The notes under the pieces are model-generated. The model was not told where the DNA came from, did no database searches, and was given only the letters and a program-made list of their open reading frames with translations. Made by a program: the position numbers and the translations under genes. A DNA stretch of 64,000 nucleotides from an uncultured Caldithrix sp. (lineage in GTDB: Bacteria; Electryoneota; AABM5-125-24; Hatepunaeales; Hatepunaeaceae): NCBI GenBank assembly GCA_964355675.1, contig CAYHEC010000010.1:41160-105159 (forward strand), given 5' to 3'. Positions within the stretch are counted from its first letter, which is position 1, and each line of letters begins with the position of its first letter. Positions 12,191 to 38,959 of this stretch are shown here, in pieces.

Positions 12191-13702
12191 TTAAGCGACA
12201 ATAGTTTGTTTCTTATTAATCAATTTGGTAAATGAGTGTACTGGATTCCCTTTGAGATCAATACGTGCAGTCTTCGAGTATTTGACGGATAGCGCATACG
12301 ATTGAACCATATTATAACAAGCTATTGACGAGCCCATACTGAACCAGAGTAGTTTATCATAGCTGCCTTGTGTAGTCAAATTACCTAATAACAATATCAT
12401 GAAAATACTCTGCCATGCTCCGTTAATTGCGTTTAGATGCTTAAATCGGGTTTTATTGGCCACATAAAATAAATAGCCAGCACTCCCGAACATCAGCAAA
12501 TACAGTGCTAATCCAACCGAGCCGGTCTCTGCTAAAATAGAGATATAGCCATTATGTGCAACCAAGCGCAAGTGGCCCTGGTCGAGGGTAGTGGCGGCAT
12601 ATTTTGGTAATAGTGTTTGATAATTTCCAATTCCAACTCCGGCAATAGGGTTGTCCTTCCACATATTGATAGCAGCTTTCCATAGCTCAAATCTCAATCC
12701 TACCGTGTCAGTTTTATTCACAATCGAAGGGATCAGTTTCTCTTGCAAAAAATTCAAATATGCTGGCGGTATAATTACTGCCACAGTGATCAGCAGAATG
12801 GCAATCTTACTTAATACTGGTAAATGTAATATATTTCTATATATATATATATTCAATAGAATTGCTATTAGGAGTAGTAGTATACCGGTTCTCGAACCAG
12901 TGTAAACGGTTCCCATCACCAAAATTAATGCTGCAATCAGATAATGTATATTTTGGGTTCGTTTTGGTTGATTAACCCATAAGTAAATAACCATAATTAG
13001 CGCCACCACAAAATATCGGGCAGACGAGTTCGCTGCACTCATCAATCCGCCTGATCTGATAAACACATCCGTTGAGATTTCGCCAACGAGAATTGCTGCT
13101 ATGGCGGAAATACAGCACGATATTGTAAACCAAATAAATACGAATCGGTTTGAATCAATTGAATTTAGCATGCCTTTTACCATCCAAGCCATTGCGAGCA
13201 ATTGTAAGAAAGTAAGAGTCCAAATTCTACCACCTGTTGGTAACAAAGCTTCAAAATAGGTAATAGTGATCCAAACGGTAAGTAATAACCCATATAGCAA
13301 AGGATAACTATTAGTAAATTTTTTACTCGATTGCGGTAAGATAGTGGGTGATTTAACTATAATAAAAGAGATAATAGTTAAAAAGCCAATAATTAAGTAC
13401 AGTGATGATAAATATGGTATATCAGGAAGAAGATTCTCAATCGGTAATAATATCATTATAAATGCAAGTCCGATAAGTGGTTTTTTAGTAATAATTATTA
13501 TACTTGTTATTGTAAATATAGTCAATCCAATAATTGGGGCAAAGCTAAAAATTGATTTAAAAGACGAAATACCTACTGCTAATCCAGCCGAGAGCAATAA
13601 CGCAATCACCCTTCTGTTGTTCGAGACAGGTCTTGAGGTATCACGACGAATAGCATAAGGATTACGAGGAGCTACTCGTTGTTTTGCTATATTATACTGC
13701 AT
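12191..13702 (-). CDS. O-antigen ligase / polymerase family membrane protein (Wzy_C domain)
   Basis: About 12 TM segments; conserved 'HNGYISILAETGSVGLALYLLMF' motif of the O-antigen ligase/Wzy family; very AT-rich coding sequence. Confidence 0.75.
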   Translation of the reverse strand: MQYNIAKQRVAPRNPYAIRRDTSRPVSNNRRVIALLLSAGLAVGISSFKSIFSFAPIIGLTIFTITSIIIITKKPLIGLAFIMILLPIENLLPDIPYLSSLYLIIGFLTIISFIIVKSPTILPQSSKKFTNSYPLLYGLLLTVWITITYFEALLPTGGRIWTLTFLQLLAMAWMVKGMLNSIDSNRFVFIWFTISCCISAIAAILVGEISTDVFIRSGGLMSAANSSARYFVVALIMVIYLWVNQPKRTQNIHYLIAALILVMGTVYTGSRTGILLLLIAILLNIYIYRNILHLPVLSKIAILLITVAVIIPPAYLNFLQEKLIPSIVNKTDTVGLRFELWKAAINMWKDNPIAGVGIGNYQTLLPKYAATTLDQGHLRLVAHNGYISILAETGSVGLALYLLMFGSAGYLFYVANKTRFKHLNAINGAWQSIFMILLLGNLTTQGSYDKLLWFSMGSSIACYNMVQSYALSVKYSKTARIDLKGNPVHSFTKLINKKQTIVA

Positions 13703-13804: not shown

Positions 13805-14791
13805 TCATGGGTGATTTGGGATGCTTTTCCATCTCATGATGCCATTATATAATCCAAATAGTCCGCCGGTAAATCTCGCCCAACCCGCTACCTGAAAAGG
13901 TCTTCTGATAATATCCCAATAAATAGCGCGAATTAATTCAAGAGATGCAACTCGATACCACTCGCTACGGTAGCTTTTCAAATCGGTTGCCAGCCAGCGC
14001 ATAATATGAGCCCTGCCCCAAGTTTCGTTTACACCTTGCCTCCAACCATTAAGAGCATAAGATTTTGTTGATTTAATAATAGATGGATGGATCGCTAAAG
14101 GCTCATTTAGAAGAAAAAGTTTACCATATCTTCCTGCGGAGAAACTGATAATTGCATCTTCGCCGGTCACTTTAAATTTGAGATCAATAGCAATCAAATT
14201 ATTCAATGATCCGATTTTCTTAATAATGTTTGAGGGGTATGACATCCCACGGCCACTTAATCTATCGACCTCAATCATGTCACAATTATGATCGATATTT
14301 TTAAATAGTAATGACTGTCCGCCAGGAGTCACAATTGGTTTATCACTGATTTCAAATCCCAAATATTTGAGAGTCCAATTATTAGGAATTTCTGTTTCAT
14401 AGTCATACTCCTCGATCTTTACAGTCAAGCCTATTCCCGCAATATTTGTTCCATTTTCATAAAGTAATTCGTACGATTTGACCAATTTATCAATAGTATG
14501 ATCATTGAGTCGAATATCGTCGTCGATAAATAGTACAACGTCGCTAACTGAGTGCTTAAACGCCCATAAACGCTGGTAAGGTAATGATGAGCATTCAGAT
14601 TTTACATATCTAATCGTTAAAGAAGGATTTTCTGCGGCAAACTTATTAATCAGGTCTTCTGTCTCAGTACCAGCAGAGGAATCGCTTACGATTACCTCGT
14701 CCGGTAGTCTTGTTTGCGAGGCAATTGACTGAAGAGTAGGGGTGATTAGAAACGCTCGCTCATGGGTTGCGATACACACACTAATCGTCAT
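13805..14791 (-). CDS. GT2-family glycosyltransferase
   Basis: 'ISVCIATHER...VIVSDSS' and 'DDD' GT-A motifs near the N-terminus. Confidence 0.7.
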   Translation of the reverse strand: MTISVCIATHERAFLITPTLQSIASQTRLPDEVIVSDSSAGTETEDLINKFAAENPSLTIRYVKSECSSLPYQRLWAFKHSVSDVVLFIDDDIRLNDHTIDKLVKSYELLYENGTNIAGIGLTVKIEEYDYETEIPNNWTLKYLGFEISDKPIVTPGGQSLLFKNIDHNCDMIEVDRLSGRGMSYPSNIIKKIGSLNNLIAIDLKFKVTGEDAIISFSAGRYGKLFLLNEPLAIHPSIIKSTKSYALNGWRQGVNETWGRAHIMRWLATDLKSYRSEWYRVASLELIRAIYWDIIRRPFQVAGWARFTGGLFGLYNGIMRWKSIPNHP

Positions 14792-16056
14792 TTTGTAACC
14801 TTGTCATTTTGTATTGATTTATAAAATCTTTGGAAGCTATTAGGCGTGATTCTTTTTCTACTTTTACTCTTCCCAAGCCCGAACTGCTGGACACAATCAC
14901 TGTAATGTTGCTCCACTTGGTCAAGAATTTTAGAAACCGAAAATTGTGATTCGGCTTTTAACCTGCCTGCAAGTCCAAGTCTGGCGGCAAGTTCCTTATC
15001 ATTAAGAAGCTTGATAATTGCCTCGGCAATCTCATCAGGACTTTCAGGGCTAATTAAGAGACCATCCCTCCCATCATCAATTAACTCCTCTCCACTGGTG
15101 CTTCGAGAATAAATTGTTGGGCACTCACAAGTCATCGCCTCGAGCGCCGCCAGACTGAAAGCTTCTGCGAACGAGGGAAGAATTACAACTCCGGCCTGAG
15201 GCAGAACCTCTGATATCAATTGGGAGCGATCAACTGCGCCGTGCATAAAGACGTTGTTACTTTCAGTAGCGCCATATTGCCTCATCAGCATCTCACTCAT
15301 CTTTTCTCCTGATGGTAAGATGGTATCTTTACCAAAAACATGCAATTCGGCTTCGGGCGATTCAATCCTAACTTTAGCCCAGGCAATAACAAGAGATATT
15401 ATACCTTTCTTCTCGGTCATCGTCCCAAAGAAAACGACTTTCAGTGGATCTCTAACAATTGTTGACTTCTTCATAATTATTTCGGCTGGATTGTAAATGA
15501 CATGAATATAACGCTTGTCAAGTTCATAGATTTTATTGAATATTTTGGCTGTATATGCACTGACCGCAATCCTATAGTCTGCGCGATAAAAGGAAGAATA
15601 ATCCAAGAGCGCGGTGATTCGATCTAACTCTCGATTCAATATCGCAGCAAAATACGTGGAAGAGCCGTTACAACGCATAATTACCGGAATTGGTAAGTCG
15701 CCCCAAAATGCACACCAACCACCGTAATCTGGAACTTCGATGAGATCGATTTCGCCTGACAGCGCCCAATCACAAATTTGATGGAATAATTTCCAACGCA
15801 TTCCGATCCAACTAAATCGCATCGAAGGAGCACGTAACCGAAATACTTGTACGCCCTGATCGTTTTCCGAATCAGGAGCTGGGTAAGACTTTGGATAGAC
15901 TCCCACGACACGAACCTGATGGCCACGTCGTGCAAGTTCTCTGGCGAAAAGCTGGACCATCGTGCCTATACCACCATGTGGACCAGGAGGGTATTCGGAA
16001 CAGATAAAACAAATTTTCATTATTTTATTGTTACTCAAAAGACTGATCGATGACAT
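14788..16056 (-). CDS. GT4-family glycosyltransferase
   Basis: 'MKICFICSEYPPGPHGGIGT' N-terminus and C-terminal 'EAFSLAALEAMTCECPTIYS' motif; true start probably the internal Met. Confidence 0.8.
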   Translation of the reverse strand: MSSISLLSNNKIMKICFICSEYPPGPHGGIGTMVQLFARELARRGHQVRVVGVYPKSYPAPDSENDQGVQVFRLRAPSMRFSWIGMRWKLFHQICDWALSGEIDLIEVPDYGGWCAFWGDLPIPVIMRCNGSSTYFAAILNRELDRITALLDYSSFYRADYRIAVSAYTAKIFNKIYELDKRYIHVIYNPAEIIMKKSTIVRDPLKVVFFGTMTEKKGIISLVIAWAKVRIESPEAELHVFGKDTILPSGEKMSEMLMRQYGATESNNVFMHGAVDRSQLISEVLPQAGVVILPSFAEAFSLAALEAMTCECPTIYSRSTSGEELIDDGRDGLLISPESPDEIAEAIIKLLNDKELAARLGLAGRLKAESQFSVSKILDQVEQHYSDCVQQFGLGKSKSRKRITPNSFQRFYKSIQNDKVTK

Positions 16057-17422
16057 TGACTATCCGCTTGCCTGCTTCTCCATCAACTTGCCCACAAATT
16101 AAATCTCGAACGGCAACTCGTTCTTGACGTCTCTTTCCAGGCAGTAATATTGCTTCCTCAACAAATTCGATCAACTCAGAAATGTCATTGGCAGTTGGAG
16201 CGGCTCCGGAAGCATTTATAGGTTCATAATGATGACAATGACAAATATTGTTATAGAAATCATGCTCCTTGGACTCCCTATCAACGTGAAAACCAATATT
16301 TACAAAGGGACGATCCAAAACAGCACAATCGAGCGCTATTGAGGAAGTCATGCTGAATACAACGGTAGCATACCTGATACTATTCGTAAGTAAAGCCATT
16401 TCATATAATCCAGGTGAAGCCCAGATGTTTTGGAGAGATTGACTACTTGCCCAAGGTAAGGACAACGTTACTTCTGGATAGGTCTGAATCAGATTTTGCC
16501 ATCTTGCGAAATTGTCAAACGGGTGGAGACGTAATACCCACTTTATGTCTTTACCATTTTGTATTTTACGAGTATTTTCGATAATAAAGGCTAAATTCTC
16601 TGATTCACGTGGTGTTAAGCTTTGATGATTGGCACAATACAGGAAATATTCCTGGTTTGAGACTAAACCTAATTCACTAAGTGTGTGTTGCAAATCCCAT
16701 TGAAATTTTGGTAAAATATGATAATCAAATTGAGGTGTTCCGGTTATCGTTATTTTACTCTTTGATATATTATAGAATTCAATTAGCTCTTTGGTCATCA
16801 ATTCACTCCATGTCATGTAATGATCAAATTTCGACCAAGGTCGATAACCTGCACTGGTCAGATTGTCAAAAGATAAAATGTGGGTAACAGTTGGTATGCC
16901 GATTTTTTGAAGGGCGCGGAAAGTCAGCCATTCGGATATTGTGCGAAAATTTGTTGAGAATGCAAGTGATAGCTTCAATTTTTCAAGATCCCTAAGCATA
17001 CTTTTAGAAATTAAGGTATTAAATATCTTCTCTTCGAAATTCTTTATTAGTAAATAACCTTTTTCAAAATCAGCGATAGGCGACGCAAGTTTATAATAAT
17101 GTTGACTTAATCTATCATGCAATGATTTGGTATTTAACTGAAATTTATTTTTGACCAAACTGTCGCCAGTATTGATTTGATGGCGATTAAAAAATGATTT
17201 AGTAAGGGAATCCAAAGCTAATCTATGCAGTCTTTTTGACGGATAATCCTGCAATAACCATATCTCAGCTTGTTTCCCCATTGAATTTCGAAAGCTCTCC
17301 TCTGCTTGTGGCGGGATCCCCCAGATAACTTCATATTTTGATTTCAATGAATCAGCAATGCCAGAATTGATAACATTTCTATAAGAAAACGAACTCGGAA
17401 TACTTACCAATATTCTATTCAA
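16031..17422 (-). CDS. Hypothetical GT-B-like transferase (TagF/KpsS/polysialyltransferase-like architecture), candidate nonulosonic-acid transferase
   Basis: 463 aa; C-terminal 'LRLHPFDN ... ALLTNSIRYATVVFSMTSSIALDCAVLDRPFVNIGF' resembles the HP / donor-binding region of TagF- and KpsS-like enzymes; weak call. Confidence 0.3.
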   Translation of the reverse strand: MNRILVSIPSSFSYRNVINSGIADSLKSKYEVIWGIPPQAEESFRNSMGKQAEIWLLQDYPSKRLHRLALDSLTKSFFNRHQINTGDSLVKNKFQLNTKSLHDRLSQHYYKLASPIADFEKGYLLIKNFEEKIFNTLISKSMLRDLEKLKLSLAFSTNFRTISEWLTFRALQKIGIPTVTHILSFDNLTSAGYRPWSKFDHYMTWSELMTKELIEFYNISKSKITITGTPQFDYHILPKFQWDLQHTLSELGLVSNQEYFLYCANHQSLTPRESENLAFIIENTRKIQNGKDIKWVLRLHPFDNFARWQNLIQTYPEVTLSLPWASSQSLQNIWASPGLYEMALLTNSIRYATVVFSMTSSIALDCAVLDRPFVNIGFHVDRESKEHDFYNNICHCHHYEPINASGAAPTANDISELIEFVEEAILLPGKRRQERVAVRDLICGQVDGEAGKRIVNVIDQSFE

Positions 17423-17437
17423 GAAACGATCTCATTA

Positions 17438-19279
17438 TCAAAATTGTTTGTTTATAAACTGTCTGTGCCACAGCTCGACATTGATCCATTGCCAAATAAA
17501 AAAGGCATTGCTGTTATCACCTTTGCAATAACCATCAAATAGTCGCTTCACTTCAGAAACTTTAAAGTACCCTCTGTTTGCAAATTCTGAACTATTAATC
17601 AATTCGATAACCCAAGATCGCAATGGACCTAAAAACCACTCACGCTGTGGAGAGACTACTGCCCGTTTGCCCGACCAACAGAGTTGCCGAGGCAATTTTT
17701 CAGTCATCGTCCTGCGCAAAAGATATTTACCTAAACCATTCTTGATTCGTAAATGACCTGGTAAGCGAAACAAATACTCTACGATTCGATGATCTAAATA
17801 GGGTTCGCGCAATTCGCGGCTAAATGCCATCGATAACCGATCATTCATGCGCAAAACTCTTGGCAATTTTGTCCAACGCAGGTCACGAAATAATATTCTT
17901 CTTAACGAATCAGGGTATGAGCTATCGAAATTTGGCGCCACCATGCCGTGATCGGCTATATCATTACTTACTCCTTCTGGACGAAGGTGGTTTGTACCGT
18001 CTTGATACACATTTATCCAGCCACCATTGCTGAGGATGGATTTTGCCTGAGATAATTCAGTTTTCCAACTTTTACCCAAGCCACGAAGATTGGCATGAAG
18101 CTCCGCCCATATACGATTATGTATTAAATCTGCAAGATAATAGGGTCTCATATAATTATAGCCTGCCAGCATTTCATCGACTCCCTGTCCTTCGAGCAGT
18201 ACCGTAACTCCCATCTCTTTTGCTAATTTATGTTGATAATGATAGGCTATCGTCGAAACCCCACCGAACGGAGCTTCCTGATGCCACATAACCTCATCGG
18301 CAAGCTTTATCACATCGACTGGGGCGAGCCTTTGGTAATTCCTTTTCCAATTTGAATGAGTTATAATACTATCGGCAAATCCCTTTTCGTCATATTGTGG
18401 ATCATCATATCCGGCTGTAAATGTTTGTATTTCGCCATCTTTATCAATAATATCATCGACCGTAACAAGCAGACTTGCCGAATCCAGTCCTCCACTTAGA
18501 TTAACACCTACCGGGACATCACTTCGCAGGCGCAAACGAACCGAATCATTCAATAACCTACGAAATTCTTTCACGACCTCGTCCTCAGGAGCATTTACAA
18601 TATCTAAGGTTAAATCAGCCAAGTCCCAATATCGACAAATAGTGATTTCGCCATCGTTAACTGTCAGCGTACATCCGGGAGGGAGTACCTTTATCCCAGC
18701 GAAAAAGGTGTCGTCTGAATGATCAAAATAGCCATGTACAAGGTAATCTGCCCAAATTCGATGGTTTGGTTCGGCTTTGAAACCAGAGGCCAGAATTGCC
18801 TTGATTTCTGAGGCAAATAGGAACAAATTACTGTTAACTACATAGTGAAATGGCTTGATTCCAAGACGATCACGCGCGCAAAACAAGCAGTTTTTACGCG
18901 GGTCCCAAATTGCAAATGCAAACATGCCGATAAAGTGGTCAACACATTTTTCACCCCATCGATCGTAAGCGGCTAATACTACTTCTGTATCAGTTGCGCT
19001 TCGATAGGGGTAATCAAATAGTTCTTGTTTTAATTCAATATAATTATATATTTCACCATTCAGTACGATCCATCTTCCACTACGCGAATCTTCCATTGGT
19101 TGACTTCCAGAGGTCGAAAGATCGATGATGCTGAGTCGATTGTGACCCAAGCCAACCCGTCCGTCGTCAGAAATCCATGTTCCGTCTGAATCAGGACCGC
19201 GATGATGTTGAACTTTGACCATCGCCAACAAGTCCGGGAGCCGCCAACCCTTGCCGATTATCCCTGAGATGCCACACAT
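17438..19279 (-). CDS. Asparagine synthetase B-like glutamine amidotransferase (WbpS-like sugar amidotransferase)
   Basis: N-terminal nucleophile 'MCGISG' (class II GATase) plus PP-loop 'LSGGLDSAS'; 613 aa. Confidence 0.9.
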   Translation of the reverse strand: MCGISGIIGKGWRLPDLLAMVKVQHHRGPDSDGTWISDDGRVGLGHNRLSIIDLSTSGSQPMEDSRSGRWIVLNGEIYNYIELKQELFDYPYRSATDTEVVLAAYDRWGEKCVDHFIGMFAFAIWDPRKNCLFCARDRLGIKPFHYVVNSNLFLFASEIKAILASGFKAEPNHRIWADYLVHGYFDHSDDTFFAGIKVLPPGCTLTVNDGEITICRYWDLADLTLDIVNAPEDEVVKEFRRLLNDSVRLRLRSDVPVGVNLSGGLDSASLLVTVDDIIDKDGEIQTFTAGYDDPQYDEKGFADSIITHSNWKRNYQRLAPVDVIKLADEVMWHQEAPFGGVSTIAYHYQHKLAKEMGVTVLLEGQGVDEMLAGYNYMRPYYLADLIHNRIWAELHANLRGLGKSWKTELSQAKSILSNGGWINVYQDGTNHLRPEGVSNDIADHGMVAPNFDSSYPDSLRRILFRDLRWTKLPRVLRMNDRLSMAFSRELREPYLDHRIVEYLFRLPGHLRIKNGLGKYLLRRTMTEKLPRQLCWSGKRAVVSPQREWFLGPLRSWVIELINSSEFANRGYFKVSEVKRLFDGYCKGDNSNAFFIWQWINVELWHRQFINKQF

Positions 19280-19998
19280 TATTTATCTATTCCCAATTTT
19301 TTACGCATTAGGACTTCAACCATTGCCATATCGTTTTCGTCATCGACGCCTACAGAGCGTTCGGGAGGCATTATATAAGGAATAATCTTGTGACCCCAGA
19401 TTGAATTTTCTTCCAGTAGAACATCGCGCCGCGTAAGATAAATTGCACCATTCCGCATATACGCTGGGGGAGAGTAATCTTGTCTTCTTGTGCCCTCTTT
19501 TTCCTCAATACAAAATGGCTGAAGGTATCCTTCTTCGATCTTCTTCATTAACATAGGGTGAACCGAAAATACCTGGACTACGCTAATCACAGAGTCGCCA
19601 TTACCTTGTACACCAAGTTTTATGGCTTCCTCAATATCTTGCACTGTTCGGAAAGGTTCTGTTGGCTGTAAAAGGCATATCCAGTCAAGTCTTTGATTAT
19701 CACGCTGTTCAATGAAATGGGCTGAATGCTGGAGAACGGGTATCATGGGAACTTTATCATGGGACAGCTCTGGTGGCCTAATAAATGGAACAGTTGCCCC
19801 TGCTTCCCTCGATATTTGTGCTATCTCCTGATCATCAGTAGAAACAACAATATCGCAGAAAAGGTGCTTTGCGGCAAGAGCGGTTTCTATGGTATAAACG
19901 ATCATCGGTTTACCGCATACCTCGCGCACATTCTTCCGGTGAACGCCTTTTGATCCACCTCGTGCAGGGATAACTGCCAATATTCTTGGGTCTGCCAT
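19279..19998 (-). CDS. Acylneuraminate cytidylyltransferase family (CMP-nonulosonic acid synthetase, NeuA/LegF/PseF-like)
   Basis: 'ILAVIPARGGSKGVHRKN' signature; canonical ATG at 19998 overlapping the upstream stop (TAATG). Confidence 0.85.
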   Translation of the reverse strand: MADPRILAVIPARGGSKGVHRKNVREVCGKPMIVYTIETALAAKHLFCDIVVSTDDQEIAQISREAGATVPFIRPPELSHDKVPMIPVLQHSAHFIEQRDNQRLDWICLLQPTEPFRTVQDIEEAIKLGVQGNGDSVISVVQVFSVHPMLMKKIEEGYLQPFCIEEKEGTRRQDYSPPAYMRNGAIYLTRRDVLLEENSIWGHKIIPYIMPPERSVGVDDENDMAMVEVLMRKKLGIDK

Positions 19999-21149
19999 TA
20001 GTAGGTAAGTTTTTTGTCGATTTTTAATTCGATTGTAGATAGAATATCAGCGATTCGGTCTCCGGCACAGCCATCGCCGTATAGACTATCTGATGGGTAA
20101 TGTCCATGTGCAAGCTGGTGGGCAATTGCTTCTGTAATCTCTTGATGATCGTATCCGACATCCAACACATTCGAAGCGCGATCCCGACCACCCTGCCGAC
20201 TACCAATATTTACCACAGGAACTCCCAAGAAGGAAGATTCCCGTATTCCAACGCTTGAATTGCCAATTAGACAACGAGCTTGAGTGAGTAGATTCAGAAA
20301 ATCTTCAGGTGGTAAATTCTTATAAAAATATATATTACGAATATCATTTTGCTCGCGGAATAATCTCATCCCTTTAGAGATATGGTCAGAACCTGCGTCA
20401 ACATTGGGCCAGAACCAGAAAGTCGGCAGGTCAAGAGTTTTGACAGCCTTAAGGGTTTCGGTAATTTGAAAGAGCCCCTCATCGACTTCGGTCGTCACCG
20501 GATGTTGCATTACAATCAAATATCCGTTTTCAAGATTGAATGTGTGCCCAACTCCGCCATATTTGACCAAAGGGTTAAAATGCGAAATTGGATTCTTCTT
20601 GACTCGATCAGCCAAATCTATGGATGGACAACCGGTAATGAAAATCGTAGTAGGATCTTCCCCCATTTTTTCCACACGAACTTTGGCTTGAGAGTTAGAA
20701 ACGAAGTGAAAATTTGAGAGTTTGGTTACAGCATGCCGGACTTTCTCATCGATAGAGCCTGTTACTTCCCCGCCTTGAACGTGAGCAACGGTGATATTCA
20801 AATAGGATGCGGCTATAGCCGTTGCGATTGTCTCGTATCGATCTGCAACAGTTACAACAATATCAGGCTTGAGATTATCGAAAATCGTAGCAAGCTCAAC
20901 AACGCCTAATCCGGTTGATTTGGCGGCGGTGACAAGATTCTCACCCTCCAAAACCATATAGACAACGGCGTCGGGTGTAAAGCCATCACTCCGAATAACA
21001 TCGATGACAGGTCCATAACGCTCCAGGAGCGCCGAGGCGCCTACCACCAATTGTAATTTTAAATCCGGATGCAACTGCACAGCCTCCAGAACAGTCTTAA
21101 TACGAGAATAGCTTGGGCGCGCGGTTACAACGATACAGATATTTCGGAT
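19998..21149 (-). CDS. UDP-N-acetylglucosamine 2-epimerase, NeuC/WecB family; 5' end extended beyond the track ORF, candidate ATC start
   Basis: 'HVQGGEVTGSIDEKVRHAVTKLS' core motif; in-frame upstream codons encode 'RNICIVVTARPSYSRIKTVLEAV', which is the conserved NeuC/WecB N-terminus, with no ATG/GTG/TTG between the in-frame TAA TAA (21162-21167) and the GTG at 21080. Confidence 0.8.
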   Translation of the reverse strand: MRNICIVVTARPSYSRIKTVLEAVQLHPDLKLQLVVGASALLERYGPVIDVIRSDGFTPDAVVYMVLEGENLVTAAKSTGLGVVELATIFDNLKPDIVVTVADRYETIATAIAASYLNITVAHVQGGEVTGSIDEKVRHAVTKLSNFHFVSNSQAKVRVEKMGEDPTTIFITGCPSIDLADRVKKNPISHFNPLVKYGGVGHTFNLENGYLIVMQHPVTTEVDEGLFQITETLKAVKTLDLPTFWFWPNVDAGSDHISKGMRLFREQNDIRNIYFYKNLPPEDFLNLLTQARCLIGNSSVGIRESSFLGVPVVNIGSRQGGRDRASNVLDVGYDHQEITEAIAHQLAHGHYPSDSLYGDGCAGDRIADILSTIELKIDKKLTY

Positions 21150-22111
21150 AGTAAAATACCTTTATTAAAATTTGATGTTGAAATAAAAGACATTAGCTTT
21201 TCAGCCATAAATCGCTCTGTCGCATGCATCGACTGCCATGTTGCGCCACCGAGATGAGGTGTGATTAACAAATTCTCATTGGTTCTTGCATAATCGATCA
21301 GTATGTTCGAAGTATCAGTATTTGTTCTTTCCTCTGACAATACATCGAGTGCGGCGCCGGCTAAATGACCAGATTTCAGATGCTCAAGAAGTGCCGGATC
21401 ATCAATAATTGCTCCCCGCGAAGTATTTATCAATAATGATCCTTTGGGTAGCCAATCGAATTCTTCGGAACCGACCATCCCGGATGTATCTGCATTTAAA
21501 GGGACATGGATCGAAAGGACATCACAATTCTGAAAAAGCTCCTTCATGGTGTTATAGCGAACAAGACTGGGATGATTAAAATCCTCAATATCAAAATATC
21601 CAACCGACATCTTGAAAGCTTGCCCGAAACTTGCGACTTGTTTCCCCACTCGACCAAGACCAAGGATGCCAAGCCGTTTTCCAGCTAATTCAATTCCTTT
21701 AAAACGATCGCGATCCCACTGACCTTCACAAACAGAATTGAAGGCTTGAGGTATATTTCTCGCAAGTGAAAGTAATAGCGCCCAGGTATGCTCGGCAGTG
21801 GCGCGAATTGAAGAAAGAAACTCGTACTCACCACGAAGACTTAATACGGTAATCCCCAATTGCTTAGCAGAGTCCATGTCGATATGATCGACTCCGGTCG
21901 TTGGTGTGACTATCACTTTTAGTCTATGCCCTGAAGACATAAGTTCTTTATCAATATTGTGTTTCAGTCGTGTAATTAACACTTCGATAGACGGGATTTC
22001 GGTCAATAGCTCTTGTCTGGTCAGCTCTCCTTCACAATATTCACCCAACTTCTTATAAATATTCTGCGCTTCTGATGAGTAGTCAGACGGTTCAAGATTC
22101 CATATTCGCAC
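21125..22111 (-). CDS. D-isomer-specific 2-hydroxyacid dehydrogenase family (NAD-binding)
   Basis: 'GKRLGILGLGRVGKQVA' Rossmann motif and 'NTSRGAIID' / 'AALDV' catalytic region typical of D-2-hydroxyacid dehydrogenases. Confidence 0.8.
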   Translation of the reverse strand: MRIWNLEPSDYSSEAQNIYKKLGEYCEGELTRQELLTEIPSIEVLITRLKHNIDKELMSSGHRLKVIVTPTTGVDHIDMDSAKQLGITVLSLRGEYEFLSSIRATAEHTWALLLSLARNIPQAFNSVCEGQWDRDRFKGIELAGKRLGILGLGRVGKQVASFGQAFKMSVGYFDIEDFNHPSLVRYNTMKELFQNCDVLSIHVPLNADTSGMVGSEEFDWLPKGSLLINTSRGAIIDDPALLEHLKSGHLAGAALDVLSEERTNTDTSNILIDYARTNENLLITPHLGGATWQSMHATERFMAEKLMSFISTSNFNKGILLSEISVSL

Positions 22112-23118
22112 TATGCGAAGTCCTCTTCAGTTACCGGTCTGTTTTCGAGAACATCGTTCTTCAGTCTGCGTCCAATAATGGTTTCCAATTTGTCGAATCG
22201 CAAGCCTGCTCCGGCTTTCTTTAGAGTAACATCGTTCCTGGCTAAAACGCTCCCGGCTTTAAGATCATGAGAAGCAACCAGACTTTTTGCGAATATACTC
22301 CGAGTGGTTGAAAGCTCTTCGGCTATGGTATTTTTGGTCACGGGATTATTCTGGACCGTTTCGATAAACCTCACACCTGCCACCAAGTCTTTCAATTCCG
22401 AGGTAGTTATCGATGAGGAAACATCGGGGCCAAACATTTCTCGAGATAGGGTCACATGCACTTCAATTAGATCGACGCCGAGCATCGCAGAAGCAATCCC
22501 GGGATAGATTGTACCGCTGTGGTCGGAAAGCCCAACTTTACAACCGTAACGATTTTTATACAGCGGTATCAAATTCAATCCGACCTTTTCGGGAGGCGTA
22601 GGATACATCGATGTGCATTGTAATAAAGTAAGTTCATTCCCAAGAGTCTTGATGTACGATACAATTTCGTCTAATTCGGAAAGAGAACTCATTCCAGTAG
22701 AAATCCAAATTGGTAAAGCGGTGTCTGCCATCAATTGAAGTAGTGGCTTATTGGTGACTTCACCTGAGCCAACTTTCCATGCGGCGACACCGATTTTCGA
22801 GAGCATCTCGGCGGCTTCCATGGAAAAGGGAGAGCTTAAGAACAGCAAATTTTGTTCAACAGCATGTGCATTTAGCCCAAGCCACTGCTCCTGAGTGAAT
22901 TCCATTCGGCGCCAGTAATCATATCTGGTAGAGTCCTGATAACTGAATTTGACCCGCCATGGTTCGCTGGGAGTGCTTTCTGCCGCGGCAATATGCGTTT
23001 GAAACTTTATGCCATCAGCCCCGGTCCGTGCGACCGCATCGATGAAGGCATGGGCTTGGCCAAGACTGCCATCGTGGGTTTGGGAAACTTCGGCGATGAT
23101 CAGGATACTGTTTTTCAT
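22111..23118 (-). CDS. N-acetylneuraminate synthase family (NeuB/LegI/PseI-like nonulosonic acid synthase) with C-terminal SAF domain
   Basis: 'ILIIAEVSQTHDGSL' TIM-barrel start, 'GLSDHSG' metal-binding motif, C-terminal SAF/antifreeze-like domain. Confidence 0.9.
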   Translation of the reverse strand: MKNSILIIAEVSQTHDGSLGQAHAFIDAVARTGADGIKFQTHIAAAESTPSEPWRVKFSYQDSTRYDYWRRMEFTQEQWLGLNAHAVEQNLLFLSSPFSMEAAEMLSKIGVAAWKVGSGEVTNKPLLQLMADTALPIWISTGMSSLSELDEIVSYIKTLGNELTLLQCTSMYPTPPEKVGLNLIPLYKNRYGCKVGLSDHSGTIYPGIASAMLGVDLIEVHVTLSREMFGPDVSSSITTSELKDLVAGVRFIETVQNNPVTKNTIAEELSTTRSIFAKSLVASHDLKAGSVLARNDVTLKKAGAGLRFDKLETIIGRRLKNDVLENRPVTEEDFA

Positions 23119-27611: not shown

Positions 27612-29699
27612 TTATCTAAATAGTAGCGAATCTATTTTTTGCGGTATCCTCCGGATACGCTTATATAATTTTCCATGTCTAATAGAACCATATGATAAAC
27701 CAAACCCTATATATTTCTGCGCAGGCACGCCGATCTTGTTGGATATTTTAGCATAATTTAAAATTGCCGTCGCGTGTTCTGCTAAACCTACCGACCACTT
27801 TCCGCCATCCCATTTAAGGTCTGTGCGGCAACCTTTTTGTTCAAATGCATTTGCCAGCTTGGGTTCGCGATTAATGTAGTACGAGATAACATATTCGAAA
27901 CTTTCCGGGTTCAGCCAAATATTGGGAGGTACATTACTCAAATCATTTAGTTCCTTGGCTAATTTCTCAGTAATTTGCCAATCTGATATAAACCGATAAT
28001 AACTCCTGCCTTTATTGTTATCGAGAATGTCGCGCTTTTTCTGCAAAGGTATTGTGCTTAAAATCGACTCATTTACAGTCGCAACCAATTGCAAGGCGGA
28101 AATAATTGATGTCTTAGTTAATTCCTCCAGTATGCGGTATTTGTTTTCGTCCATCGTAAACCATTCTTGCCTCAAGTTATCCACGAGAGCCGACGAATGT
28201 TCATGTTTATTTTCTACCGAAATACCAGACCGTTCAGCAAGTGAATAAGTGTATTTAAGACTATTTAACATACAAAGAAGGACTCGAATCCGGACGGGAC
28301 TACTATACGCAATCCAAATTATGTCATGCGGTATTTTTACTAATAAGTAATCTACCAACATACCGAAAAAGGCGCCTTGCGAAACTGACGACGATGAAAC
28401 ATCGCCTAAGTCTATTCCAGAAAGAAGCCTATAATTAAATATAGGAAATAGCTTTGGGAGTATTCCAATAGCACCTTCCGTGCAGACGTATGGTGGATGC
28501 GTCATGAGTAATCGAACCCATTGAGGAAAGTTTTCAGGCTTGTAATTTTGCCAGGTCAATTTCACATCGTCTGGGTACACAATCAAATAATCAAGGTCGG
28601 AAATGCCAGGTGCACCAACTTGTCCAATTTGATATATTGCAATCGGTTTTGGGGCAAGTGAGTTCCAGAATTTCGTTACAAGTTCAGTCGTTTCTTGATA
28701 ACGTTGGTCTTGAATTTGAAGAGGTAGATCAGTTACCGGGCGAGAGAAAACACGTGGACCAGGTTCCTTGGGAGCGACATCTCGTATTTTTGTTTGCATG
28801 CTATGGAGTAATGCAAGTACACGTCGCGGGAAATCTTCTCCTAAAACATTTTGAACATCGATGACTTGCTTACTATTTCGAGAATTCCGTCTTGCAATCT
28901 TTTGTAATAACGATGGACGATGAATTTGGAGCGCAAACCAAACTAATATCCGTGATGGCTTATGTCGCGGCCCAAGAGTTGCCCTTAAATTTGTCGCTAA
29001 TACTATTGGTTCCCATTCTTCTTTCGTGAAGTATTTTTCTGCGATAGGGAATGTGTCCCTTTTGTATCTAAATTCTCCTGTCATACGTTGGAGAAATAAG
29101 GCTGGTAAAATCATCAGATTCCCCAAGCAGTGTTCCACATCGTAATAATCTCTCATCATAAATGGTTTCGAACTCCAAGCATTGAAGTAACCAGAAAACA
29201 TTACAAGCATGGAATCTGTAATTTCGTTGGAAGGTACGACCATCACTTCGATTGGATCATTGGATTCAAAAAGATCAACGCCATAATTAAAGAGTATCAG
29301 TGGAAATTTCGCTTCTGGATAAGAGGACAACTCGCTTTGCATTAGATAATAGGGTTCATGATGCATAAAAGGATCGAAGGCATAAGTTAAGGCAAGAATC
29401 TCGCTACGAAGCTTATTATACTTACTCTGCATTCGCGTATCTGTTAAAGTCGAATCCTTCACAATAAACGTCAAATCTAAGTCGCTAAATCCTTCAACAT
29501 CATCAAGTGTCGCGACACTTCCATGAATAATCGCCCGTAAAAACAGATCTTTGTTTTGGTTTGCCAATTTATGCAACTTCCATACGGGCCAATATTTTGA
29601 CTGGCTGCCACCTCTGTCAAGCCATGATTGATAATTTGTGCCAGATGGAACTTGATGGATCATAATCTGTTTATCAGACTTATTCAACTTGCTTGCCAT
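27612..29699 (-). CDS. Uncharacterised protein with two Pol-beta-like nucleotidyltransferase-fold motifs
   Basis: 695 aa; 'HGSVATLDDVEGFSDLDLTFIV' and 'IGQVGAPGISDLDYLIVYPDD' both fit the G[GS]-x(9-13)-D-h-D-h nucleotidyltransferase signature; no closer family recognised. Confidence 0.4.
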   Translation of the reverse strand: MASKLNKSDKQIMIHQVPSGTNYQSWLDRGGSQSKYWPVWKLHKLANQNKDLFLRAIIHGSVATLDDVEGFSDLDLTFIVKDSTLTDTRMQSKYNKLRSEILALTYAFDPFMHHEPYYLMQSELSSYPEAKFPLILFNYGVDLFESNDPIEVMVVPSNEITDSMLVMFSGYFNAWSSKPFMMRDYYDVEHCLGNLMILPALFLQRMTGEFRYKRDTFPIAEKYFTKEEWEPIVLATNLRATLGPRHKPSRILVWFALQIHRPSLLQKIARRNSRNSKQVIDVQNVLGEDFPRRVLALLHSMQTKIRDVAPKEPGPRVFSRPVTDLPLQIQDQRYQETTELVTKFWNSLAPKPIAIYQIGQVGAPGISDLDYLIVYPDDVKLTWQNYKPENFPQWVRLLMTHPPYVCTEGAIGILPKLFPIFNYRLLSGIDLGDVSSSSVSQGAFFGMLVDYLLVKIPHDIIWIAYSSPVRIRVLLCMLNSLKYTYSLAERSGISVENKHEHSSALVDNLRQEWFTMDENKYRILEELTKTSIISALQLVATVNESILSTIPLQKKRDILDNNKGRSYYRFISDWQITEKLAKELNDLSNVPPNIWLNPESFEYVISYYINREPKLANAFEQKGCRTDLKWDGGKWSVGLAEHATAILNYAKISNKIGVPAQKYIGFGLSYGSIRHGKLYKRIRRIPQKIDSLLFR

Positions 29700-30969: not shown

Positions 30970-32124
30970 TTAGAAGAAATTATCCATAATGCCTTCAAGT
31001 ATGGTAAGCCTCCCATCGTTGACGGACTGATTGTTGCCTATATAGAAGGCGTTGGTGTGTAGGAAATCTGCGTTTTTAAATCCTTCGGCGTTATAGTGTT
31101 TCTTCAGGAAAGGTTGGCGCAGGAGGTTTCCGGCAACGAGTGGGCGGGACTCGATGCCAGCATCGGCAATAATCTTCTGAAACCTTTTCTTTTGTTCACA
31201 GTCCTTAAACAGAAATTGAAGAACAAAAGAGGATATCCCTTCGGATTCCGCTACAATAAGGGCGTCGCTATATTTCTTACATATCTCAACAAAACGGCTA
31301 TAGTTGCGATTCCTTATTTCAATGAATTGGTCTAATTTGTCAAGTTGTGTTAGACCCAAAACCGCGTGGAGTTCAGTGTTTCGAACATTGAACCCGTCGG
31401 TAAGAAATAGAAATTGAAAATCAATGTACGGATACTTAGTTTTGATGTCGTCATGGTATTCAATCGGCAGTTCGCGAGCCAGTCCATGCGACCTTTTCAA
31501 CAACAACAACCGGTATAATTCTTCGTTGTTGGTGCAGACCATGCCGCCTTCGACTGTAGTCATGTGGTGACCCCAGTAAAAGCTGAAGGTGCTGCCTATT
31601 CCGAAGTTCCCAACCTTTACCTTGTCAATAGTGGCTCCATTTGCTTCACAGCAATCCTCCATGATCAAAATGCCACGATCGCCGATGATTTTCTTGATGC
31701 GGGAAATGTTAGCTGGAAACCCGATCAGGTGAGTAATAAATATCGCTTTTGTTCTGTCGGTGATGCATTTCTGAAGCTGATCGTAATCAAAGGAGAAATC
31801 CTGAAGATTGACGTCAACAAAGACAGGTTTCAACCCGCTCTGCATTACCGGGGTAACATTGGTTGTCCATGTAACGGCGGGTACGACAACTTCATCGCCA
31901 TCATTCAAGCCATACATCTCCTTCAAAGCATTGATTAATACCAGATTGGCTGAACTGCCCGAATTGACAAACACGCTATACTTACATCCCTGCCATTTGG
32001 AATAGCGGTTCTCAAATTCTTTTACTTTTGAAAATTGAGTAAATCTGGTTGTTTCCCTGATAAAGGAGACAAGAGTGCTAAGGTCATCTTGACTCAATAT
32101 ATCTTCTTGTAGTTTCCAGAGCAA
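30970..32124 (-). CDS. DegT-family PLP/PMP-dependent sugar 3-dehydratase (ColD / E1-like)
   Basis: DegT-family motifs 'VNSGSSANLVL', 'GDEVVVPAVTWTTN'; the usual Schiff-base Lys is replaced by His in 'GSTFSFYWGHHMTTVEGG', the hallmark of ColD/E1 3-dehydratases. Confidence 0.75.
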   Translation of the reverse strand: MLWKLQEDILSQDDLSTLVSFIRETTRFTQFSKVKEFENRYSKWQGCKYSVFVNSGSSANLVLINALKEMYGLNDGDEVVVPAVTWTTNVTPVMQSGLKPVFVDVNLQDFSFDYDQLQKCITDRTKAIFITHLIGFPANISRIKKIIGDRGILIMEDCCEANGATIDKVKVGNFGIGSTFSFYWGHHMTTVEGGMVCTNNEELYRLLLLKRSHGLARELPIEYHDDIKTKYPYIDFQFLFLTDGFNVRNTELHAVLGLTQLDKLDQFIEIRNRNYSRFVEICKKYSDALIVAESEGISSFVLQFLFKDCEQKKRFQKIIADAGIESRPLVAGNLLRQPFLKKHYNAEGFKNADFLHTNAFYIGNNQSVNDGRLTILEGIMDNFF

Positions 32125-32186
32125 TTTATAAATTCCCCATGGTTGTTTTGCCCGATTTGATCAGTATTCCAGTTTGAAAGTCCATT

Positions 32187-36792: not shown

Positions 36793-38067
36793 TTATTTTA
36801 AACTTAAGCTCCAATTTGTCCCACCCAGAACACAGCTAAAATGCCTCGCTACTGCGCCATAGCGTGCCATTGTGGAACCGGTTTCTATGATGTTAAAACT
36901 TGAAACATTTTTACGTGTATCAATGCTTAGCTTGTTTGGATTGTGTGCAGAAATATAAACAGTATACATGTCAGGGACAAGAAAGTTCTCCCTTATCCGA
37001 ATGGTTGCTTGATACAAACCGGGCTTAAGTTCCACAAACGCCTTATTATTTCCATCAGATAAACTACTAAATAATACATTAACATCATTAGAATTAGATA
37101 ACATAAAAGTGATTTCAGTATCTGTAGTGTGGCGCAATACTCTGAATTCAAGTCCAATCATAAACGGATTCAGAACATCTATATCCGCGCTCAGATTACC
37201 TTGATGGTCAGTTATCCAAACTTTTGTAAAGGATACGTTGGCGTCCAATTGAGGAACCAACGTAACAACTTTAGTTGTTTCTACTCTTTTATCAGTTATA
37301 TACTGGCTTATAATATCAGATACTACTCCAGTACCAGATATTCTGCCATTATCAAGTAATATCGCTTGAGTACACAATGACCGTACCGCTCCCATATTAT
37401 GACTCACAAACAGCACCGTCCGACCCTCGTGCGCGACTTCTCCCATTTTCCCAAGGCATTTTTTCTGAAACTCAACATCGCCAACGGCGAGTACTTCGTC
37501 AATAACAAGTATCTCCGGGTCCAGATGCGCCGCCACCGCGAATGCCAGGCGCACCTTCATGCCCGACGAATACCGCTTGACAGGAGTATCGATAAATTGC
37601 TCAACGCCGGAAAAGTCAACAATCTCATCGAACTTTCTGGTCACTTCAGCTTTTGTCATTCCAAGGATCGCGCCATTCAGAAATACATTCTCCCTACCCG
37701 TCAATTCCGGGTGAAATCCAGTCCCGACCTCAAGCAAAGCCCCGATTCGTCCTTTTATCTTGATCTCACCTGAGGTTGGCGCAGTTATATGTGAGATGAT
37801 TTTTAATAATGTTGACTTACCAGAACCATTCTTGCCGATAATGCCGAGTACCTCACCTTGATTAACTTCAAAGTTTATATCGCGCAACGCCCAGATGTAT
37901 TCGCCGCTCTTGTTGCCATGATCCATCTCGCCGATTTTTAGCAGTGGGTCAGGTTTGCCTCTCGCTCTCGCCCACCAGCGACTAAGGTCTCCTGACAATG
38001 TACCTCCCCCGATAAGTCCCAATTTATAGAACTTAGAGAGGTTTTCGACCTTGATAACGACACTCAT
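36793..38067 (-). CDS. ABC transporter ATP-binding protein for glycan export (Wzt/TagH/KpsT-like) with C-terminal extra domain
   Basis: Walker A 'GKNGSGKST', signature 'YSSGMKVRLAFA', Walker B 'ILVIDEV'; ~180-aa C-terminal extension as in Wzt carbohydrate-binding domains. Confidence 0.9.
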   Translation of the reverse strand: MSVVIKVENLSKFYKLGLIGGGTLSGDLSRWWARARGKPDPLLKIGEMDHGNKSGEYIWALRDINFEVNQGEVLGIIGKNGSGKSTLLKIISHITAPTSGEIKIKGRIGALLEVGTGFHPELTGRENVFLNGAILGMTKAEVTRKFDEIVDFSGVEQFIDTPVKRYSSGMKVRLAFAVAAHLDPEILVIDEVLAVGDVEFQKKCLGKMGEVAHEGRTVLFVSHNMGAVRSLCTQAILLDNGRISGTGVVSDIISQYITDKRVETTKVVTLVPQLDANVSFTKVWITDHQGNLSADIDVLNPFMIGLEFRVLRHTTDTEITFMLSNSNDVNVLFSSLSDGNNKAFVELKPGLYQATIRIRENFLVPDMYTVYISAHNPNKLSIDTRKNVSSFNIIETGSTMARYGAVARHFSCVLGGTNWSLSLK

Positions 38068-38107
38068 TGCGCGCTCAACAGGTCGATGATTGCAGTTACT
38101 ATGCCGC

Positions 38108-38959
38108 TCAAATTGTGTCCTCGAAAGTCCGTTCGACGCGGTTAAACAACGAGATTCCGATCAGAAGGATAGTGATAGACATCACAGCGCTATAGGAAAG
38201 ATAAATTAAATCAGCTTTACCGGCTCCTAAGAAGGCATAACGGAAAGTCTCGATCACTGGCGCCATCGGGTTGGCAACAACAATCCACTTGTATCGTTCG
38301 GGAATGCTCGACACCGGATAAATCACTGGCGTCGCATACATGAACAGGTGAATTCCAAAAGTCACCAAAAATCTTAAATCGCGGTAACGAATCGTCAACG
38401 AGGAGACGATTATGCCTAAGCCCAATCCGAGACTACCCATGATGATCAGAAGAACGGGAGTAAGTAAAATCCAAATATTCGGAGATACGCTGGCTCCGTT
38501 GATCAGAAAATAGATGAGAAAACCAATGAAAAAAAGGAACTGAATTCCGAAGGCTATAATATTAGAAATTACAATACTTACAGGCATTACGAGCCGTGGG
38601 AAATATACTTTGCCGAAGATGGCGGAATTTGCAAGAAATGTTTCCGCTGATTTGGTGATAACATTTGAGAAGTATGTCCAGGCGACCGTGCCAGACATAT
38701 AGAAAAGGAAGGGCGGCAGTCCATCAGTGGATAACTTCGCAACCTTGCCGAATATAATAGTGAACACTACGGACGTCAACAACGGCTGAATTATGTGCCA
38801 GAGCGGGCCGAGAATTGTCTGTTTGTACTGCGCCACAAAGTCGCGCCGCACAAATAGCGATACCAAATCTCTGTAGCGCCACAATTCTTTAAGACGAAGA
38901 TCAAACCACTTGCCCCGTGGCTGAATTACCGTCGTCCACTCAGTCTGGGTTTCCATCAT
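38108..38959 (-). CDS. ABC-2 type permease for glycan export (Wzm/TagG/KpsM-like)
   Basis: 283 aa, six hydrophobic segments, 'RDFVAQYKQTILGPLWHIIQP' N-terminal motif typical of ABC-2 permeases; adjacent to the ATPase. Confidence 0.85.
   Translation of the reverse strand: MMETQTEWTTVIQPRGKWFDLRLKELWRYRDLVSLFVRRDFVAQYKQTILGPLWHIIQPLLTSVVFTIIFGKVAKLSTDGLPPFLFYMSGTVAWTYFSNVITKSAETFLANSAIFGKVYFPRLVMPVSIVISNIIAFGIQFLFFIGFLIYFLINGASVSPNIWILLTPVLLIIMGSLGLGLGIIVSSLTIRYRDLRFLVTFGIHLFMYATPVIYPVSSIPERYKWIVVANPMAPVIETFRYAFLGAGKADLIYLSYSAVMSITILLIGISLFNRVERTFEDTI

Follow-up and report, generated by a model that had tools for sequence, protein, structure and literature searches.

A polysaccharide locus with nonulosonic acid genes

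We analysed a 64,000-nucleotide stretch of contig CAYHEC010000010.1 from an uncultured Caldithrix sp. (the window, taken at its full length) and focused on a gene at 16031..17422 on the minus strand, which a first-pass annotation had proposed as a candidate transferase for nonulosonic acids (NulO). The open reading frame (ORF) is real, uninterrupted and located exactly where it was first placed, and it encodes a protein of 463 amino acids (aa) from a TTG start at 17422. It belongs to a minus-strand polysaccharide locus of ~39 kb running from ~38959 down to ~100. Read in that direction, the locus begins with Wzm, Wzt, a methyltransferase-like fragment, a split transketolase, two epimerase/reductases and a DegT aminotransferase, continues with a Glyco_trans_1_2 protein, a 695-aa protein, a GT9 glycosyltransferase (GT), a guanosine diphosphate (GDP)-mannose dehydratase and two GT2 enzymes, and then reaches a run of NeuB-like, phosphoglycerate dehydrogenase (PGDH)-like, NeuC, NeuA/PseF-like and AsnB-like genes that ends with the candidate transferase. 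It closes with GT4, GT2, Wzy_C, two further GT4, acetyltransferase, oxidoreductase, aminotransferase, epimerase and GT2 genes.

The five genes immediately upstream would supply a NulO activated with cytidine monophosphate (CMP). The first encodes a divergent NeuB-family nonulosonate synthase (22111..23118, minus; PF03102 plus SAF) that scores below the cut-offs of both the NeuB model (287 bits vs 400) and the PseI model (213 vs 340). It is followed by a PGDH-like D-2-hydroxyacid dehydrogenase (2-HADH; 21125..22111, minus; PF02826 plus PF00389, below all NCBIfam equivalog cut-offs), a NeuC-type hydrolysing 2-epimerase of uridine diphosphate (UDP)-N-acetylglucosamine (UDP-GlcNAc; 19998..21080, minus; TIGR03568 at 346 bits vs a cut-off of 236), a CMP-nonulosonate synthetase of the CTP_transf_3 type that is closest to PseF (19279..19998, minus; PF02348; PseF at 162.8 bits vs a cut-off of 205.7) and, directly upstream of the candidate, an AsnB-like glutamine-dependent amidotransferase (17438..19279, minus; TIGR01536 at 415 bits vs 267; GATase_7 and Asn_synthase domains). 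This gene order confirms the initial statement that the candidate lies directly downstream of an amidotransferase and a CMP-synthetase. Because the synthase and the cytidylyltransferase both fall under every NCBIfam equivalog cut-off, the identity of the NulO is not readable from these models. As a UDP-sugar 6-dehydrogenase is missing from the locus, AsnB could amidate just one sugar acid encoded there, the NulO carboxylate. The donor may be an undescribed NulO derivative of the NeuB/NeuC/CMP-synthetase/AsnB cassette (with or without the 2-HADH), such as one that is amidated; no earlier case of an AsnB-coupled NulO pathway turned up in a literature search.

The NeuA/PseF-like gene is the sole cytidylyltransferase of the 39-kb locus, and CMP-nonulosonate is the only CMP-linked donor that the locus makes. 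No member of the known sialyl-, NulO- or Kdo (3-deoxy-D-manno-octulosonate)-transferase families occurs among the locus genes or elsewhere in the window, and the window has no second member of the candidate's own superfamily. The 463-aa protein is put forward as the NulO transferase because a CMP-NulO made here needs a transferase and the window has no other candidate, an argument already advanced in the first-pass annotation and upheld by this inventory. At the head of the locus, the Wzm/Wzt ATP-binding cassette (ABC) exporter (36793..38959, minus; ABC_tran and ABC2_membrane) includes a Wzt with a Wzt_C-like C-terminal domain of the glycan-end-binding type, scoring 28.9 bits and thus just below its gathering threshold (GA) of 30.4. 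A Wzy_C protein (12191-13702) is also present in this locus beside Wzm/Wzt.

The gene model itself required correction. The TTG start lies 15 nt past the stop codon of the AsnB-like gene, and an in-frame stop at 17432-17434 blocks any longer N-terminus, while the 3' end of the ORF overlaps or abuts the start of the GT4 gene directly downstream (14788..16056, minus). Since the ORF ends close up to both of these neighbours, the gene is one cistron of an extended operon on the minus strand. In public gene calls the identical protein begins at Met48, which yields 416 aa and leaves a gap of 157 nt, and the first 47 residues (17282-17422 of the window, minus; also loci L088 and L089 of our set) are omitted there. 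The omitted residues include strand beta1 and the near-invariant R15-N16. As alignments with homologues begin at residue ~3, R15 and N16 are conserved, and beta1 (residues 3-7) is modelled by AlphaFold2 with a predicted local distance difference test (pLDDT) score >93, the Met48 start is wrong and the TTG at 17422 is the true start. A protein cloned as publicly annotated would be without strand beta1 of the fold. A chance reading frame can be dismissed, as the ORF has 99 database homologues and a confident AlphaFold2 model.

Family relationships, fold and conserved residues

The protein passes the Pfam model PF04464 (Glyphos_transf, TagF-like) at 43.2 bits vs a GA of 22.1 (E 3.4e-11), with a match spanning residues 133-303 and profile positions 73-239 of 367, and does not reach PF02350 (UDP-GlcNAc 2-epimerase; 14.2 bits vs a GA of 30.6, E 0.019). 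A Pfam scan at E<=10 returned only these two families and a spurious UL73, and no sialyltransferase, Kdo-transferase or KpsS family; the GT38, GT42, GT52 and GT80 Pfam models gave no match to the protein, KpsS/KpsC/KpsS1 (Capsule_synth; GT107/GT118) were matched neither by family model nor by fold, and none of the GT family models for donors linked to nucleoside diphosphates (NDP) scored above threshold. Of the three affinities that had been suggested for checking by hidden Markov model (HMM), the one to TagF was thus borne out, while those to sialyltransferases and KpsS were not, and the supposed likeness to KpsS and polysialyltransferases is not seen at the sequence level. The protein belongs to none of GT38/42/52/80, GT99/107/118 or the epimerase family, and is TagF-like by its Pfam score, yet it is without the catalytic hallmark and the donor supply of TagF.

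Comparisons based on a 90-sequence family alignment place the protein more precisely. PF04464 is matched by 49 of the 90 members and PF02350 by 6 (E<=1e-3). Among 18,950 NCBIfam models, BFO_1060_trans (NF046086) is the best match for 88 members (best E 9.1e-18), TIGR04396 ('surface carbohydrate biosynthesis protein') is matched by 80, and every other model by at most one. The locus tag BFO_1060 denotes, in Tannerella forsythia, two TagB-like proteins, Tanf_01245 and TFUB4_00887, which are genetically defined transferases of pseudaminic (Pse) and legionaminic acid (Leg) (PMC5420450). A distant group of relatives (A2) matches the same model with a best E of 4.9e-23, and it and the 90 members all remain under the cut-off. 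The 463-aa protein is likewise not a member of TIGR04396 (27.1 bits vs a cut-off of 125), with which it shares GxPxFD, R-x-H-P and S/T-T motifs and an hhalign probability of 99.5% over the C-terminal two-thirds; unlike this family, however, TIGR04396 proteins are without the S-F-D-N-L-T-S motif and the H398 region. The candidate therefore represents a large, uncharacterised and unnamed family within the TagF-like superfamily, related to but distinct from the T. forsythia Pse/Leg transferases.

A word-indexed search recovered 99 homologues, all unnamed or 'hypothetical', the best non-self match being 44% identical. An exhaustive HMM search yielded 2,410 clusters (at 50% identity) with E<=1e-30, a number that rises to 8,981 with E<=1e-3. 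Relatives are carried by 323 genomes of GTDB species, and among the 80 loci listed nearly all are metagenome-assembled genomes (MAGs) of Acidobacteriota, Verrucomicrobiota, Gemmatimonadota, Chloroflexota, Bacteroidota and others; the family is almost confined to uncultured bacteria. The A2 group, partly from candidate-phyla bacteria, is 21-25% identical, aligns end to end (hhalign E 6e-84) and carries the same motifs. A second database search with a profile added just 15 distant relatives, none named BFO_1060, and a tblastn search of 72,556 plasmids found no match to the family. Several of the proteins recovered by HMM search are fused or tandem (P0117, P0138, P0139, P0146, P0156, P0177, P0183, P0205, P0233), comprising fusions to GT4 transferases (P0233, P0183), a Wzx-like flippase (P0177) and a PhyH dioxygenase (P0156) as well as tandem double modules. 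GT4 and flippase fusions and tandem modules are typical of transferases acting on lipid-linked glycans rather than of enzymes for sugar-nucleotide biosynthesis. PhyH genes are also found as neighbours of homologues in loci L001 and L007.

An AlphaFold2 model built from the 90-sequence alignment (mean pLDDT 93.3, predicted template modelling score 0.93) has a GT-B fold of two Rossmann-like domains, and fold searches agree with this prediction, as had been anticipated. A helical insertion of roughly 90 residues at ~60-150 is basic (17 K+R vs 9 D+E), and the sequence has no transmembrane segment (maximum Kyte-Doolittle 19-residue mean 1.51). Hydrolysing epimerases of the SiaA/NeuC type use three catalytic carboxylates, namely the xDR Asp, the Glu of the GGE loop and the Asp of the IDE motif. 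In an hhalign comparison of the family with NeuC, an alignment of moderate reliability (probability 96%, E 1e-9), the xDR Asp faces a non-acidic S-T-N, the GGE loop is deleted and only the IDE Asp aligns, with D186. Two of the three carboxylate positions of NeuC/SiaA/LegG epimerases are thus not conserved here, and the ~90-residue helical insertion is a further difference. Searching PDB sequences with the protein alone or with the profile of 90 sequences gave nothing relevant, so the protein's residues are not mappable onto TagF/TarL by sequence; a Pfam-positive paralogue (L007:5105-6628) tried as a bridge to TagF had no PDB match either.

Only five residues are invariant across the 90 sequences (D186, N187, R298, S360 and H398), and these lie within a series of conserved motifs: R15-N16, S-F/W-D-N-L-T-S, G-T-P-Q-F-D, Y-C-A-N-H...T-P-x-E-P, R-L-H-P, S-T...D and H-Y. 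R15-N16 (17375..17380, minus) occupies the first beta-alpha loop of the N-terminal domain and is conserved in 89 and 88 of the 90 members, respectively. D186-N187 (16862..16867, minus), within S-F-D-N-L-T-S, stands just after the N-domain strand 178-181 and is present in 90/90; S-W-D-N-L-T-S is the A2 version of this motif. The inter-domain hinge is formed by G-T-P-Q-F-D-Y (16721..16741, minus; G228, P230, Q231, F232 and D233 in 87-89/90), which recurs as GcPRFDfY in the TIGR04396 family. R298-L-H300-P301 (16520..16531, minus), located on strand two of the C-terminal domain, is kept to differing degrees (R298 in 90/90, H300 in 79/90, P301 in 83/90); it contains the protein's single HP, which is the HP motif remarked on at the outset, and TIGR04396 relatives carry (i)R(l/p)HPfE. 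S360-S361 (consensus S-T; 16340..16345, minus) forms the N-terminus of helix 360-368, with S360 invariant and Thr or Ser at 361 in 90/90, and aligns with the NSS loop of NeuC; judged from sequence, it is a putative nucleotide-phosphate binding loop. H398 (16229..16231, minus), in the H-Y motif, is the family's only invariant histidine (90/90).

This pattern departs from that of TagF-like phosphotransferases, which rely on two invariant histidines, a Trp-His base and a phosphate-contacting His (PMC10901376). The two-histidine pattern is not found in this family, the N-terminal domain having no invariant histidine (H181 is kept in 71/90), and the correspondence with TagF is one of topology and motifs rather than of three-dimensional superposition. 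The invariant Asp-Asn near the position of the TagF Trp-His appears to stand in place of the catalytic histidine and, by analogy, an invariant acid at this point may resemble the situation in GT-B sialyltransferases. The GT38 polysialyltransferases, GT52 and GT80 belong to the same GT-B fold class and have an HP motif as the 463-aa protein does, and the CMP-NulO donor and acidic base proposed here would extend that likeness. In GT-B sialyltransferases, HP contacts the CMP phosphate and the catalytic base is acidic, according to Freiberger 2007 as cited in PMC5420450 and PMC7439481. Their base lies in D/E-D/E-G, whereas the invariant acid of this family is found in F-D-N-L.

Gene neighbourhoods of the homologues

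To place the family in its genomic context, ORFs of 85 non-redundant loci were clustered and then searched with HMMs built from the clusters, and neighbours within 10 kb were counted in the 48 species-level loci having at least 8 kb on each side. A CMP-synthetase was found in 28 of the 48 loci, a NeuB-family synthase in 25 and NeuC in 18, and 29 loci (60%) had NeuB or CMP-synthetase. Other frequent neighbours were Wzt (30/48), AsnB (29/48), Wzy_C (28/48) and a CapK-like ligase (22/48). AsnB was considered as the primary partner on the strength of its frequency and rejected, as Gemmatimonadota and Chloroflexota loci have the homologue directly after NeuB or PseI without AsnB.

The six-gene module of NeuB, NeuC, CMP-synthetase, 2-HADH, AsnB and the candidate is whole in a Joint Genome Institute (JGI) metagenome contig (L001; homologue 43% identical) and in a Blastocatellia MAG (L003; 41% identical). 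The PGDH-like 2-hydroxyacid dehydrogenase joins the cassette in the window, in these two loci and in L066 and L084, while the NeuB/NeuC/CMP-synthetase/AsnB cassette recurs more widely, with AsnB directly after CMP-synthetase (L019, L045-L049, L056, L058, L061, L066, L070, L074, L080-L082). A transketolase gene also adjoins NeuB in L007, and a split transketolase occurs in the window's own locus.

Three types of NulO pathway are linked to the family. The NeuC/NeuB (sialic) type is that of the window and of many loci from Acidobacteriota and Verrucomicrobiota. The legionaminic type is seen in L017, where the homologue comes at once after genes for a nucleotidyltransferase, a LegB-like protein, LegC (above its cut-off), a CMP-synthetase and a synthase. 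A pseudaminic-type locus (L031) has PseG and PseI, both passing their cut-offs, with the homologue immediately after. The phyla concerned are unrelated, and in several of them the gene's immediate neighbour is NeuB, PseI or NeuC. The sole feature common to the three pathway types is their CMP-NulO product, which fits the need for a transferase and not a pathway-specific tailoring enzyme. A second TagF-like family shares the Leg/Pse loci: true TIGR04396 members (cluster c17) co-occur with homologues of the candidate in 18 of them, namely at L017:6866-8296 (259 bits), at L031:3081-4559 and in 16 others. These proteins may act as a second NulO transferase or may substitute for LegG in loci without NeuC.

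Predicted function, alternatives and implications

Taken with the fold, the family relationships, the linkage to CMP-NulO genes and the lack of a CDP (cytidine diphosphate)-polyol pathway, these neighbourhoods support the proposal that the gene encodes a nonulosonic acid transferase. We posit that the 463-aa protein is probably a CMP-NulO:glycan NulO-transferase working at the cytoplasmic face of the membrane. In this scheme, whose donor, acceptor and catalytic roles are predicted, a cytoplasmic, membrane-peripheral GT-B enzyme would take the CMP-NulO made by the five upstream genes and transfer the NulO to a sugar hydroxyl of a lipid-linked polysaccharide built by the GT2/GT4 enzymes of the locus, releasing CMP, and the finished glycan would be exported by the Wzm/Wzt ABC transporter. 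The C-terminal Rossmann domain would bind CMP through the R298-x-H300-P301 strand, the N-terminus of the S360-S/T361 helix and H398, with R298-L-H300-P301 contacting the CMP phosphate. The acceptor hydroxyl would be activated or positioned by D186-N187, in the manner of the Asp/Glu base of GT-B sialyltransferases, and the basic helical insertion (~60-150) may hold the lipid-linked acceptor or the membrane. A TagF scaffold could be reused for glycosyl transfer because both reactions expel CMP.

The closest precedents are the T. forsythia proteins. Deletion of Tanf_01245 or TFUB4_00887 removed the terminal Pse/Leg derivative from the O-glycan and left the CMP-NulO pool intact (PMC5420450), and transferase function was inferred from these knock-outs, i.e. 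it is genetically defined (PMC5420450). The candidate resembles them in being TagB/GT-B-like with an HP motif, in its length (463 aa vs 442-445 aa) and in the position of its gene right after the CMP-NulO biosynthesis genes, a comparison drawn from the family HMM and the published description. Protein O-glycosylation in Bacteroidota is the process that the T. forsythia enzymes serve; the gene here lies instead in a Wzm/Wzt polysaccharide locus. Other CMP-ulosonate transferases in ABC-transporter-dependent glycan pathways, namely WbbB (GT99), KpsC/KpsS (GT107) and KpsS1 (GT118), are retaining enzymes. KpsS1 is the one biochemically proven Pse transferase for polysaccharides and is unrelated to the 463-aa protein. 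WbbB adds a terminal beta-Kdo cap to O-antigen, and a NulO cap in this Wzm/Wzt locus might be a functional counterpart. More speculatively, since the locus Wzt has a Wzt_C-like domain and Wzt occurs in 30 of the 48 loci, the NulO may be a non-reducing-end, chain-terminating cap that is read by the Wzt C-terminal domain before export, even though the locus has the Wzy_C protein as well.

A number of observations weigh against this assignment. The match of the candidate to BFO_1060_trans reaches only 29 bits vs a cut-off of 200 (E 5.8e-7) and is local (residues 199-238); with a score so far under the HMM cut-off, the protein is, by sequence, a relative of the BFO_1060 family and not a member. 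H300 is replaced by Tyr or Ser in 10 of the 90 members, and the sialyltransferase D/E-D/E-G motif ([DE][DE]G) occurs nowhere in the 463-aa protein, nor does DXD, whereas the T. forsythia proteins have been described with both (PMC5420450). Neither NeuB nor CMP-synthetase lies within 10 kb in 19 of the 48 loci. One Verrucomicrobiia lineage (L009-L011 and L015; 35-36% identity) has no nearby NulO genes, its upstream genes encoding an acyl carrier protein (ACP)-domain protein, a deacetylase, AsnB and Wzt. Local NulO genes are missing from L037, L040 and L085 too. In such loci the donor genes may be further off, the donor may be housekeeping CMP-Kdo, or the protein may have another role. The neighbourhood frequencies are raw counts without a matched control set, and the 'CMP-synthetase' HMM could also recognise KdsB. 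In Bacillus subtilis, Leg transfer does not require SpsB, a TagB-like protein encoded beside a legionaminic acid pathway (PMC7439481), so the step from a TagB-like gene next to NulO genes to a NulO transferase has failed once. Finally, the best structural neighbours of the model are UDP-GlcNAc 2-epimerases, not transferases, and Foldseek also ranks epimerases first.

Among the alternatives, the one that survives best, though we consider it improbable, is an ordinary GT-B enzyme that uses a UDP-, GDP- or other NDP-sugar, or housekeeping CMP-Kdo, and is found near NulO genes because both reside in large polysaccharide loci. No NDP-sugar GT model scored above threshold, however, and shared residence in large loci accounts poorly for a gene that abuts NeuB, PseI or NeuC in several phyla and for a six-gene module kept at about 42% identity, or for R-x-H-P and S-T motifs common to the TIGR04396 and BFO_1060-like families that accompany NulO pathways. 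The CMP-Kdo version involves the same chemistry, that of a CMP-ulosonate transferase, and is hence a variant of the NulO-transferase assignment.

We regard as slightly less likely still a classical TagF/TagB-type phosphotransferase that moves glycerol-, ribitol- or hexose-phosphate from a CDP-donor onto a polysaccharide. The PF04464 match to TagF/TagB/TarL covers only residues 133-303 of the 463-aa protein, and where those proteins have the Trp-His base this family has an invariant Asp-Asn, with H398 as its sole invariant His. The locus ORFs scanned include no TagD, TarI, TarJ or other CDP-polyol gene, so that the 39 kb showed no gene for making CDP-glycerol or CDP-ribitol, and no CDP-polyol genes are among the frequent annotated neighbour families of the 85 loci. 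Furthermore, the closest curated family consists of NulO transferases, not TarF/TagB/TagF, and the linkage to CMP-NulO genes is tight. The phosphoryl transfer of TagF/TagB/TarL would here be replaced by a predicted glycosyl transfer at C2 of the ulosonic acid.

A non-transferase, i.e. an epimerase- or hydrolase-like nucleotide-sugar enzyme that is a divergent relative of NeuC/LegG/PseG and acts inside the NulO pathway, was taken seriously as a second NeuC/LegG-type epimerase after the fold searches had put 2-epimerases first, and was then downgraded to very improbable on the evidence of catalytic residues (the xDR Asp and GGE Glu positions are non-acidic or deleted in the family), Pfam matches (49 members to PF04464 vs 6 to PF02350), and the GT4/flippase fusions and tandem modules that point to a transferase; in addition, a bona fide NeuC is encoded in the window 2.6 kb upstream and PseG in L031, three pathways of differing chemistry would not be expected to share a pathway enzyme, and the CMP-NulO pool persists when the T. 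forsythia relatives are knocked out (PMC5420450).

Several other features of the window are of separate interest. The 695-aa ORF of the locus (27612-29699, minus) has no Pfam match (E<=1e-4) and no PDB sequence match, and by eye shows two G-S/x...D-L-D nucleotidyltransferase-like motifs. The region 30970-35827 (minus) holds the split transketolase, whose N- and C-terminal halves are separate genes, the DegT aminotransferase and the two epimerase/reductases, which are NAD-dependent, and is a second unusual sugar-modification module of the locus. Following the locus, just past a ParB-like gene (39089-39970), an ORF of 2,829 aa (40419-48908, plus) has no PDB sequence match.

Returning to the proposed NulO transferase, the family appears to be a large unnamed sister of a barely characterised enzyme class, and the prediction is plausible but would hardly surprise a specialist. 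What gives it value is how large the family is, that three NulO pathways are linked to it, the change from His to Asp/Asn and the correction of the start codon. Few enzymes are known to attach bacterial sialic-acid-like sugars, which is a bottleneck for understanding and engineering such surface glycans, and the only TagB-like examples are the two genetically defined T. forsythia proteins. Tentatively, and with well under even confidence, we suggest a broader picture of a very large unnamed family of CMP-ulosonic-acid transferases on a TagF scaffold, with Asp-Asn replacing His, that would serve sialic-, Leg- and Pse-type pathways in Acidobacteriota, Verrucomicrobiota, Gemmatimonadota, Chloroflexota and others, possibly with a NulO cap and an undescribed NulO donor. 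If the family does the work of the T. forsythia enzymes, the gene would mark polysaccharides decorated with NulO in several little-studied phyla that are mostly uncultured, the family would offer candidate enzymes of differing NulO specificity in ~2,400 sequence clusters, and a phosphotransferase scaffold, that of TagF, would have been re-tooled for glycosyl transfer by swapping its histidine base for an acid.

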